From: a virus
Taxonomy: Duplodnaviria > Heunggongvirae > Uroviricota > Caudoviricetes
Strand: one strand, 5' to 3'
Virus record (IMG/VR): IMGVR_UViG_2675903396_000026
Length of the DNA stretch: 9,913 bases
Made by a program: the position numbers. This document shows positions 3,001-6,000 of the stretch, piece by piece (the stretch's first letter is position 1; each line of letters starts with the position of its first letter).

Positions 3001-6000
3001 TTACACTATCATTACGACGATCCACATGCATTGAAATTCCATCAGGAGCATATATTGTACCAAGCTTACCTGTAAGTATCATATCCATATCAAGATAGAT
3101 ACACCCCTCCCCGAATGAAATACCGTGATTCTTTGTATTATATGTGCACCTGAATATCTCTCCTGCTTTTAATAAGGCTAAATTTCTGAAGAAATCAAAC
3201 CATGCATGATTTCTTTTCTTTGCATACATAGAAATCAAAGAATCCTGCGCCTTTGAAATTTCCCTCAGCTCTTTCTCTAACAGATTCAACAAGTATTCAT
3301 CTCTTTTGTCTTCAGTTCGTAACCTTTGTTCACATATAATATCATGATAAATATCTGATAGTTTTCTGTCATACATACTGAAGTCAACATCTTCCCGATA
3401 GATTATCATTACATTTTCAAAATCTCGTTCCAATTTTGAAAAAGCAGTCTTTTGGTTGACTGAAAAATCGCCATCAACAAAAATACCTATCATACGATCA
3501 CTCTCTATCCTTGCCGCATTTGTGACATTATCTAAATAGGGATGCTGCTTAGTATTAACTATTGGAACCTCATCTTTCTTATATCGTTCAGGATTAGGTT
3601 CAAACCACTGAAAAAGAATAGGCGTTTTTTCATCAATGACCTTTAACTCATATTCCTTTCCTGCAAAAGAAACCGTTTGACAGGGTGAACTCTGCACTAT
3701 ATTTACTGAGTTATGGAAAGTTGTCCTTATCGGTGAAAGCATTCGTCGTCCTGTTTATCCATATTTTCTTCACAACTAACTCTTTAATCTATTAATTATA
3801 TTGGCATACTCAACCACAAAACCTCCAGCAGTTTTGCCATCTTTGCTTTCCTAACAAACATCCACCGGACATGACAACAAAAACCGGAGCCGGACTCCGG
3901 TTTTGTGAAGCTGTCGGGTTACTTCATCCCGCCAATATTTTCCCACGTCCCGTCAGCACGCAGGATTTGCAGCGGTCTTACCACACACTGTATCTGCTTT
4001 TTATCTGCATCCAGTATCACCACCTGTGTGATTACCCTGTCCTGCTCCGGAATAATGCCATTCTCATCTGACTCCAGAATGTCTGCCGGTCCCAGTCGCA
4101 ATTGTGCTGTAAGTGACCGTCCGTTTTCACAGTCATCATGCTTTCCGCAACCGCACAGACTCTGCATAAGCTTTCTCAAAATATTCATGTCATTCTCCAG
4201 TTCTGCCTGTATCACTGCCCACTTCATCCAGTCCCTTAACATCCTGCCATGGCCCGTCACCAAATCTGACCTGCAAATGCTGAAACATCCCCTGAACCTG
4301 TGTGGCATCTTTGGGGTCAAGAAAGGTCAGTCCGGTGATGAGCGCACCATCTGTACCCGGGAACCAGCCATAGCTGTTTGTCTCAATAATTCTCATCGGC
4401 CCCAGACGGAACCGTATTTGTGTCTCCCCCGGGTCGCCCTTCGCCCCCTGAGGTCCGGTAGCCCCCACCGGGCCAGCCGCACCTGTTTCCCCTTTCGGTC
4501 CCTGCGGTCCTGCCGGACCTGTTGCCCCGGTATCTCCCTTTGGCCCCTGTGGACCTGTACTTCCTGTCAGACCGGTCTCTCCCCGCTCTCCCCTGTCGCC
4601 TTTCGGCCCCTGCGGACCTGCCGGACCTGTATCTCCTCCCGGTCCCCGTTCACCGGTTGCCCCTGCCGGACCGGTGTCTCCACGCTCTCCTTTATCTCCC
4701 TTAGGCCCCTGAGGACCCGCGGGACCCGGTTCCCCCTTTGGTCCGGGAGGCCCCACCACGGTGGGAATTCTGTTTACGGCGTCTTCCGCCGCTATTCTGC
4801 TTTGTTCCGCTGACTGTGCGCTTTCTGCTGATTCCCGGGCTTTTTCTGTTGCGGTCGTTGCATCCCTGGCTGCATTACCGGCTGCACTTTCTGCCGTCTT
4901 TTTTGACAACTCGGCATCTGTTGCACTTTGTAATGACTCACTGGCTTTTTGAGCGGCCTCAGAGGCTGAGGACGAGGACGCTTCCTCTGACTTCTTTGCA
5001 GAGGCTGCACTTTCTGCCGCCTGCCGGGCTGACTCCGATGCATCCTCTGCTGAAGTATCAGCATTTGCGGCGCTCGCTTCCGCCTTACTGGCTGATATGC
5101 CGGCATTCCTCGCGGACGTCTCTGCTTCTCCGGCATTCTTCTTCGCCTCCTCTGCGTGACGCGCTGCTTCTTCCACCATCTGTTCAAAACGACGCAGTGC
5201 CTCCGGACGGGCATCATCCTCCGTCATGGCACCGAGAAAATCATTCAGCGTACCCGGTTGAGAATCTTCATACACGGAGATGGTCCCGGCATGTGATGGC
5301 GGGAATCCCTCCACCAACAGAGTGACGCTGTACTGACCATACTCGACGTCCATGCTGTAACGCCCTGCCTCATCCGGATTTTCAGAGGCCACCGTGTTCA
5401 CCACCACCGTGGTGCTGTTACGTCTGGCTTTCAGTTGAATGGTGCAGTTCTGTATTGGTTTTCCCGCACCATCTTTCAGCACGCCTGATATTTGTACTGC
5501 TGCCATACCCACTCCACAAAAAAGCCCGCCTGAACCGGCGGGCTGTCATAACGCTGTGTTACTAATCAAAATTTATAACCGACACCCACGATGAAACCGT
5601 CAGTGCGCCAGTCACCGCTGCCGGAGCCTTCATAAGCGACATCAACGGCCACTGATTCGGTCGGGTTAAACTGCACGCCAGCCCCCCACGCCAGAGACGT
5701 GTTGCTGTGGCAATAATCCCCGGAAAAAGTCGACACACGGCTGTAAGCCACACCCGCCATCGCATACGCACTGAACCATTCATTCACACGCACAGACGGC
5801 CCTGCCATCACGCTGAACCAGCGGTTACGCACGTAATCCTCATGCCAGCGGGTATCGCTGTAATGCGTTTTTTGCTCATCTTCGGCGTTGGCATAACTGA
5901 AGGACGTAATCAGCCCCAGTGTGTCCGTAAACTCATAACGGTATTTCACGTTAATCCCGTTCAGATCATCGCTGCCGGGAGCGTCCGTACTGGCATGAAG

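Follow-up and report, generated by a model that had tools for sequence, protein, structure and literature searches.

Collagen-like fiber proteins are known from prophages of pathogenic E. coli, as the first-pass annotation of the DNA studied here had stated, and one of them, EPclA, was cloned and characterized in 2012 (ECs2717; Ghosh et al. 2012, PLoS One 7:e37872, PMC3368898). Recombinant EPclA, produced for ECs2717 only, was a trimer with collagen and coiled-coil CD signatures, and rotary-shadowing EM revealed a dumbbell of 55-62 nm in which a hinge joins a thick stalk (PCoil, about 16 nm) to a thin one (Col, about 30 nm) (PMC3368898). The Col region gave a collagen CD spectrum with a Tm of 42 C, and the N-terminal PfN domain was monomeric when produced alone (PMC3368898). 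Immuno-EM placed a relative, EPclB (Sp5 ORF67), at the ends of tails, and this protein was needed for plaque formation and lysogenization (PMC5155283). The lateral fiber of phi24B (gp61) shares the layout of these proteins, and the knob at its C-terminus was proposed as the receptor end, probably not for BamA (phi24B preprint). At the opposite end of such fibers, residues 1-94 of the Ur-lambda Stf protein form a six-stranded beta sheet with a helix, and 12 copies of this N-domain make up a collar around the gpV/gpM junction from which four trimeric fibers extend (PMC12617516).

The window (the whole stretch of 9,913 nucleotides analyzed here) is 99.9% identical to many E. coli O157:H7 chromosomes. 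Its genes are arranged in the order J, lom, fiber, a gene of 89 codons, nleB2, nleC and nleH1, with J-lom-fiber as in lambda, and in a matching genome nleD, ybhB and bioA come next after nleH1. NleB2 (326 aa) has been assigned to O-island 36/CP-933K/Sp3 (PMC7142665). On sequence grounds, with nleB2, nleC and nleH1 as the cargo genes of this island, we identify the window as CP-933K/Sp3, a lambda-like prophage of E. coli O157:H7. Because Table 2 of Ghosh et al. 2012 names the copies of this very prophage, Z0982 (CP-933K) and ECs0844 (Sp3), as EPclA and gives their PCoil as 116 aa and their collagen domain as 111 aa (PMC3368898), the fiber is very probably the EPclA side tail fiber already described, a listed member of a characterized family, which makes the finding real but ordinary. 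The protein carries PfN (PF08400), an Ala/Ser/Glu heptad PCoil, a single uninterrupted Col and PfC (PF06820), and its gene belongs to the tail module of a lambdoid EHEC prophage, as defined for EPclA.

Features of the CP-933K/Sp3 fiber locus (positions in the window; aa, residues of the fiber)
Feature	Position	Strand	Basis
Side tail fiber CDS, EPclA type, complete	4190..5506	(-)	ORF list and translation, 438 aa plus stop
Shine-Dalgarno motif GGAG	5512..5515	(-)	Read off the sequence; spacer to ATG at 5506 is 5 nt
Hairpin with T-run, terminator-like	5523..5544	(-)	Consensus scan; between lom and the fiber start
PfN collar (tail-attachment) domain, aa 3-95	5222..5500	(-)	PDB 9e7m chain Ta, lambda orf-401 and PF08400
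PCoil, xxxAxxA heptad tract, aa 101-246	4769..5206	(-)	Heptad print-out and 3.5-residue periodicity
Col, 37 uninterrupted Gly-X-Y triplets (111 aa), aa 252-362	4421..4753	(-)	Translation; PF01391
PfC C-terminal globular knob, aa 364-427	4226..4417	(-)	PF06820 (Phage_fiber_C), 1.1e-33, 115.9 bits against a cut-off of 25
89-aa gene, Cys-rich 27-aa leader and second PfC	3919..4188	(-)	PF06820, 5.1e-36; phrog_576, 2e-60, full length
J	6176..9589		
lom	5566..6105		
nleB2	2762..3742		
nleC	1709..2728		
nleH1	1..891		

The ORF finder returned a long minus-strand ORF (4190..5512) with a GTG at 5512 as its listed start. Since this GTG overlaps the GGAG motif, the ATG at 5506 is the likely start of the fiber. 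RefSeq holds the same 1317-nt CDS, and the gene is 99.9% identical to WP_000741874.1 ("prophage tail fiber N-terminal domain-containing protein"); in PHROGs, the protein was assigned to tail-fiber families (phrog_366 at 5e-141). ORF list and translation agree exactly with the extents originally proposed for the gene (4190..5506) and its collagen tract (4421..4753). The hairpin upstream of the start has an 8-bp stem with seven GC pairs followed by TTTTTT and may function as a terminator. No sigma-70-like promoter sites were found in a scan around the fiber gene; their absence would be consistent with late-operon read-through of the gene, without being evidence for such read-through. Other frames over the fiber region are also free of stops for long stretches (312 and 206 codons antisense, 143 codons in another sense frame), and the G+C content is 69% in the Col DNA against 49% in the window, in agreement with the compositional reason that had been suggested for these open frames. 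When the fiber was compared with a 93%-identical homologue (L003), dN/dS was 0.19 overall and 0.15, 0.22 and 0.10 for PfN, PCoil and Col, respectively, which indicates that purifying selection maintains the annotated frame, not the open alternatives. The annotation of lambda contains a comparable antisense ORF (orf206b) inside stf.

The first-pass annotation described a side tail fiber of the lambda Stf type with a collagen shaft, and profile matches at both ends of this description bear it out (PF08400, phage_tail_N, 4.2e-68; PF01391, Collagen, 1.7e-17). The PF08400 match spans aa 3-134, reaching position 5105 of the window, and scores 227.9 bits against a cut-off of 26.6. The proposed resemblance of the N-terminus to the tail-attachment region of lambda Stf held in a real alignment, with 88% identity between aa 3-118 of the fiber and aa 2-117 of lambda Stf (orf-401; E 3e-76), and a PDB sequence search matched the N-terminus to chain Ta of 9e7m (Ur-lambda gpStf residues 1-94; E 1.6e-50). 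Beyond aa 118, no significant alignment to lambda orf-401 was found, the fiber has no Pfam match to PF03406 (Pf2 repeats), and tfa is represented only by a remnant, a 51-aa C-terminal fragment at 1051..1206, about 3 kb downstream of the fiber. For these three reasons, the fiber is classed by its sequence as a member of the Stf family through its N-terminus only. In a 99.9%-identical genome, this prophage also encodes homologues of gpM (E 1e-36 to lambda M) and gpV (E 2e-88 to lambda V), so the docking site for the collar is present. By analogy with Ur-lambda, the fiber would dock at the gpV/gpM junction.

The region that follows had been described as a low-complexity Ala/Ser/Glu tract. Its position (4763..5176, aa 111-248) and composition (31% Ala, 17% Ser, 15% Glu) were correct; low complexity, however, is an incomplete description. 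When aa 101-246 were set out in sevens, about 20 consecutive unbroken xxxAxxA heptads were observed with Ala at two fixed positions, and the 3.5-residue periodicity of Ala had a power of 4.8 compared to 0.21+/-0.21 in shuffled sequences, none of which reached this value (0/2000). In the paralogue ECs2717, this region is a trimeric coiled coil by CD and SEC-MALLS with a Tm of about 52 C (PMC3368898). The tract is thus very probably a coiled coil and not merely of low complexity. Since the proximal rod of lambda Stf is also a coiled coil (PMC12617516), the rod is best seen as a shorter version of the lambda kind of structure with collagen added, not as a disordered replacement; the earlier statement that the lambda shaft is replaced was right about the presence of collagen but overstated the exchange. 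A similarity between the Ala/Ser/Glu rod and the lambda rod at the level of sequence was considered and rejected, with the matches being compositional only (E of 7 or worse).

The PF01391 match falls into two stretches, the better covering aa 303-361. Pro occupies 17 of the 37 X positions and 22% of the residues in Col are charged; the same preference for Pro at X and the same charged content were reported for the Col of EPclA (PMC3368898). Neither the collagen nor the heptad pattern is a chance pattern (PF01391 1.7e-17; 0/2000 shuffles), and we read Col as a collagen triple helix of about 30-32 nm.

At its C-terminal end, the fiber closes with a PfC domain. PfC is a trimerization domain that re-nucleates the triple helix and allows fast refolding (PMC3368898), and in this fiber it is probably also the receptor-binding end. 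AlphaFold 2 modeling of the PfC monomer from a 9-row alignment gave an all-beta fold of low confidence (mean pLDDT 52.8, pTM 0.33) that was unusable, and the same failure of structure prediction was met by the authors of the phi24B study (phi24B preprint). The PDB sequence search gave no matches outside the collagen region and the N-terminal domain, and so none for PfC. A profile search for distant relatives returned 92 clusters among 1.84 billion representatives, mostly fragments or chimeras, and such a small number marks PfC as a narrow family. One distant protein has four tandem PfC-like modules beside a Gly-X-Y tract. A literature search for the receptor of lambda_2B8-type fibers returned nothing usable.

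Neither this domain nor the PfC gene next to it was mentioned in the first-pass annotation. The ATG of the 89-aa gene lies 1 nt past the fiber TGA, and its PfC shares 35% identity with that of the fiber. Of 296 matching phage records, 293 have the gene next to the fiber; 933W and VT2-Sakai are among them, and in both its product is 98.9% identical. Its homologue in Sp5 (ORF68) is non-essential, and the authors of that study put forward the idea of a reservoir for tip variation (PMC5155283). It is conceivable, though quite unlikely in our estimate, that the 89-aa gene is a working partner of the fiber, either as a separate trimeric tip or co-assembling subunit that would change the receptor bound, or as a resident cassette that would recombine into the fiber 3' end to switch tips. 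An apparent natural fusion of fiber and 89-aa gene (P0043/P0044, 494 aa) was considered as Rosetta-stone evidence and rejected. In the L003 DNA, deletion of a single G in a G-run moves the fiber into the frame of the downstream gene, which is open for about 44 codons, and P0043/P0044 is a frameshift allele or sequencing error and not a designed fusion.

Taken together, we read the gene with high confidence as an EPclA-type side tail fiber of CP-933K/Sp3, trimeric and ordered PfN-PCoil-Col-PfC. Three chains would assemble into one fiber, with their beta-sandwich domains at the N-terminus (up to about aa 95) docking as a collar at the junction of tail tube and tail tip, as in Ur-lambda. A flexible linker would lead into the trimeric Ala-heptad coiled coil (about 16-21 nm) and a hinge into the 37-triplet collagen helix (about 30-32 nm). 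At the end, a small all-beta PfC knob would trimerize and nucleate folding of the triple helix from the C-terminal end, and would presumably bind a cell-surface receptor and so speed adsorption. The rod would act as a spacer whose length shifts in steps of whole triplets or heptads when recombination occasionally joins imperfect internal repeats or takes place between the many paralogous copies in the genome.

Compared to the characterized EPclA, the domain order, the 111-aa Col, the Ala/Ser/Glu PCoil, the composition of Col and the prophage setting are all alike. This copy starts with MAAVQISG and was counted at 438 aa, whereas most copies start with MAVKISG and have 437 aa (437 also in the paper), which is nothing of substance. 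The biophysics was done on the Sp14 paralogue ECs2717 and not on the CP-933K/Sp3 copy; by analogy with this paralogue, which is said to be >90% identical, the copy would be expected to behave in the same way. With lambda Stf (PDB 9e7m; PMC12617516), the fiber shares the 88%-identical collar and the gene position after J and lom, as well as a trimeric build with a coiled-coil proximal rod and a hinge (here taken from the sequence and the characterized paralogue). In contrast, lambda Stf has neither collagen nor PfC, its rod is a longer coiled coil (residues 102-393), and besides Pf2 repeats it has a gp37-like distal part, which binds OmpC and depends on the Tfa chaperone, whereas here tfa survives solely as the C-terminal fragment. 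The fibers of short-tailed Stx phages (EPclB/Sp5 ORF67, 933W L0121 and phi24B gp61) likewise consist of PfN, PCoil, collagen and PfC followed by an 89-aa PfC-only gene. Unlike the CP-933K/Sp3 fiber, EPclB (645 aa) has two collagen domains split by a Pf2 repeat and is mounted on a podovirus tail, and in phi24B just two of the three N-domains per trimer bind the tail.

The repeats in Col had been thought similar enough at the DNA level for slipped-strand or recombinational changes in fiber length. Among 120 listed homologues, the Gly-X-Y run was never interrupted and always in frame, with 5-38 triplets and fewer than 5 in a few proteins, which answers the check on triplet counts proposed at the outset. 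Three variants differ from the protein of the window solely by in-frame deletions of 16, 18 and 32 triplets (144, 162 and 288 nt). The same locus (J-lom-fiber-89-aa gene-nleB2) is present on their contigs, where about 1,700 nt outside the deletion contain 0-1 mismatches, and the 162-nt deletion recurs in three independent assemblies; all short-Col alleles come from draft assemblies, in which collapse is possible in principle. One deletion junction lies in a repeated GPQGPKGD motif (24/26 nt alike) and the others in 7-nt microhomologies, while the homologue L003 is without exactly one 99-nt (11-triplet) unit of the repeat found by TRF. Length alleles at the very same locus with next to no other differences, and junctions in short imperfect repeats, are what would be expected if the tract were a contingency repeat whose frequent slipped-strand changes switch fiber reach within a population. 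Against this, exact direct repeats in the Col DNA reach 14 nt at most (none of at least 16 nt was found), the sole tandem array in Col comprises 2.1 copies of the 99-nt unit at a 69% match, and the span of the locus was the same in all 57 uninterrupted complete genomes among the closest matches, so that we consider a contingency repeat very improbable. Length variants at the fiber locus exist but are uncommon. Recombinational length change was thus rightly proposed, but it happens occasionally rather than by way of a hypermutable switch, and the slipped-strand part of the claim was too strong for the repeats present.

A different doubt concerns what this copy does for its own phage. In strain FDAARGOS_293, this prophage has a frameshift in its protease/major-capsid gene, and for this reason the CP-933K/Sp3 fiber may never be assembled onto its own virion. 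The gene could then be intact but idle, part of a defective prophage, and either be kept as recombination stock for the 8-13 related fiber genes of the genome or serve other induced prophages in trans. Each O157 genome contains 13-18 matching places, multiple EPclA copies per genome are >90% identical with some frame-disrupted (PMC3368898), and the tfa remnant together with the downstream effector cargo points to past rearrangement of the tail-fiber region. The capsid frameshift, however, comes from one strain and lies outside the window, and the full-length ORF shows 99.9% conservation among hundreds of O157 genomes, with a dN/dS of about 0.1-0.2. An idle copy seems unlikely to us on balance, and such a reading would alter the use of this copy only, not the identity of the protein. 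Far less probable still, and the least credible of the readings weighed, is a bacterial surface adhesin that binds host tissue in the manner of streptococcal Scl1/Scl2 or Legionella Lcl. These proteins and BclA do share with the fiber an unhydroxylated Gly-X-Y triple helix stabilized by charge and Pro and a globular trimerization domain that nucleates folding, the Gly-X-Y region of the fiber matched the NCBIfam models for SclB, Lcl and SclA in part, and the locus lies beside type III effector genes. Yet Scl1/Scl2, Lcl and BclA are anchored to cells or spores and have signal sequences and unrelated non-collagen domains, and the NCBIfam matches reached 63-88 bits in the repeats only, with cut-offs of 325-500. 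The fiber lacks an LPXTG motif, and its N-terminus, as read from the translation, has no hydrophobic stretch resembling a signal peptide; the N-terminal domain is a phage collar domain. The gene sits in the tail module after J and lom, and its relative EPclB was located at phage tail ends (PMC5155283).

Read as an EPclA-type side tail fiber, the protein joins a rare natural heat-stable, unhydroxylated collagen helix to an alanine coiled coil, a combination already in the literature, and the window adds one more copy together with a clean example of how one locus can hold rare length alleles that stay in frame. If the 89-aa gene were indeed a partner of the fiber, these prophages would have a two-tip system that does without a Tfa-type chaperone, which might explain why the receptor of PfC fibers has stayed elusive. 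More broadly, such fibers likely influence which bacteria the prophages of O157:H7 reach, including those that carry Shiga toxin and effectors, and thereby the spread of virulence genes.

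The window lom is an in-frame deletion allele, and its product is an outer-membrane protein expressed in the lysogen. Relative to the reference it lacks 60 nt, corresponding to 20 residues (FRVTDNKRKTHDVLTGSDDAR), and a flanking substitution was also observed; the gap sits in a loop region that is likewise divergent from lambda Lom. A 199-aa lom was present in all 57 of the closest complete O157 genomes with an uninterrupted locus, where the locus spans 2461 nt as compared to 2401 nt in the window. Terminator-like hairpins lie on either side of lom, and it could be conjectured that both might shield lom, when expressed in the lysogen, from the late genes on its two sides.

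Features of the lom, fibre and tfa regions (window coordinates)
Feature	Position	Strand	Description
tfa remnant (Tfa, Caudo_TAP; tail-fibre assembly)	1051..1206	-	51 aa, C-terminal part; between nleC and nleH1
89-aa gene	3919..4188	-	Cys-rich leader (LCGCGKHDDC) and second PfC (PF06820) domain
Strong terminator-like hairpin	5523..5544	-	Between lom and fibre start; 8-bp stem, 7 GC pairs, T6
lom	5566..6105	-	179 aa
Similar terminator-like hairpin	6135..6154		Upstream of lom

The 89-aa gene, which besides its leader encodes only a PfC domain, is probably translationally coupled to the fibre gene, as it begins very near the fibre stop codon. Its homologue in Sp5 is non-essential (PMC5155283). In three complete O157 genomes (NZ_CP015831.1, NZ_CP015832.1 and NZ_CP062749.1) the locus span was ~1.3 kb greater, with an IS1203 transposase among the features under the match. 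The PfC-only gene (~3919..4188 in the window) carries two annotations in each of these genomes, which suggests, as read from the annotation, that it has been split by the IS.

An apparent fusion of the two genes was observed at a homologous locus (contig ABAMNM010000127.1), where a single G is deleted within a G-run close to the end of the fibre gene (locus position ~3830). The fibre reading thereby enters the frame of the 89-aa gene, which is open for ~44 codons upstream of its ATG, and this frameshift yields a "fusion" of 494 aa (P0043/P0044) in which the PfC motif appears twice. Other fibre-like proteins also carry PfC-like units, in the form of internal repeats, since a 565-aa protein of the representative library (P0179) contains four tandem modules of ~58 aa each (...TVVVLxADxxxxxGxxGILxVRxADGTWxEIPA...) followed by a Gly-X-Y tract.

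The location of the tfa remnant between two effector genes suggests that effector genes were inserted into, or substituted for part of, an ancestral stf-tfa region. In the matching prophage of strain FDAARGOS_293 (locus positions 6366..6501; NZ_CP022050.2 757365..759382), the gene for a ClpP-like protease/major-capsid fusion is annotated as frameshifted, and the prophage may therefore be incapable of producing its own heads.
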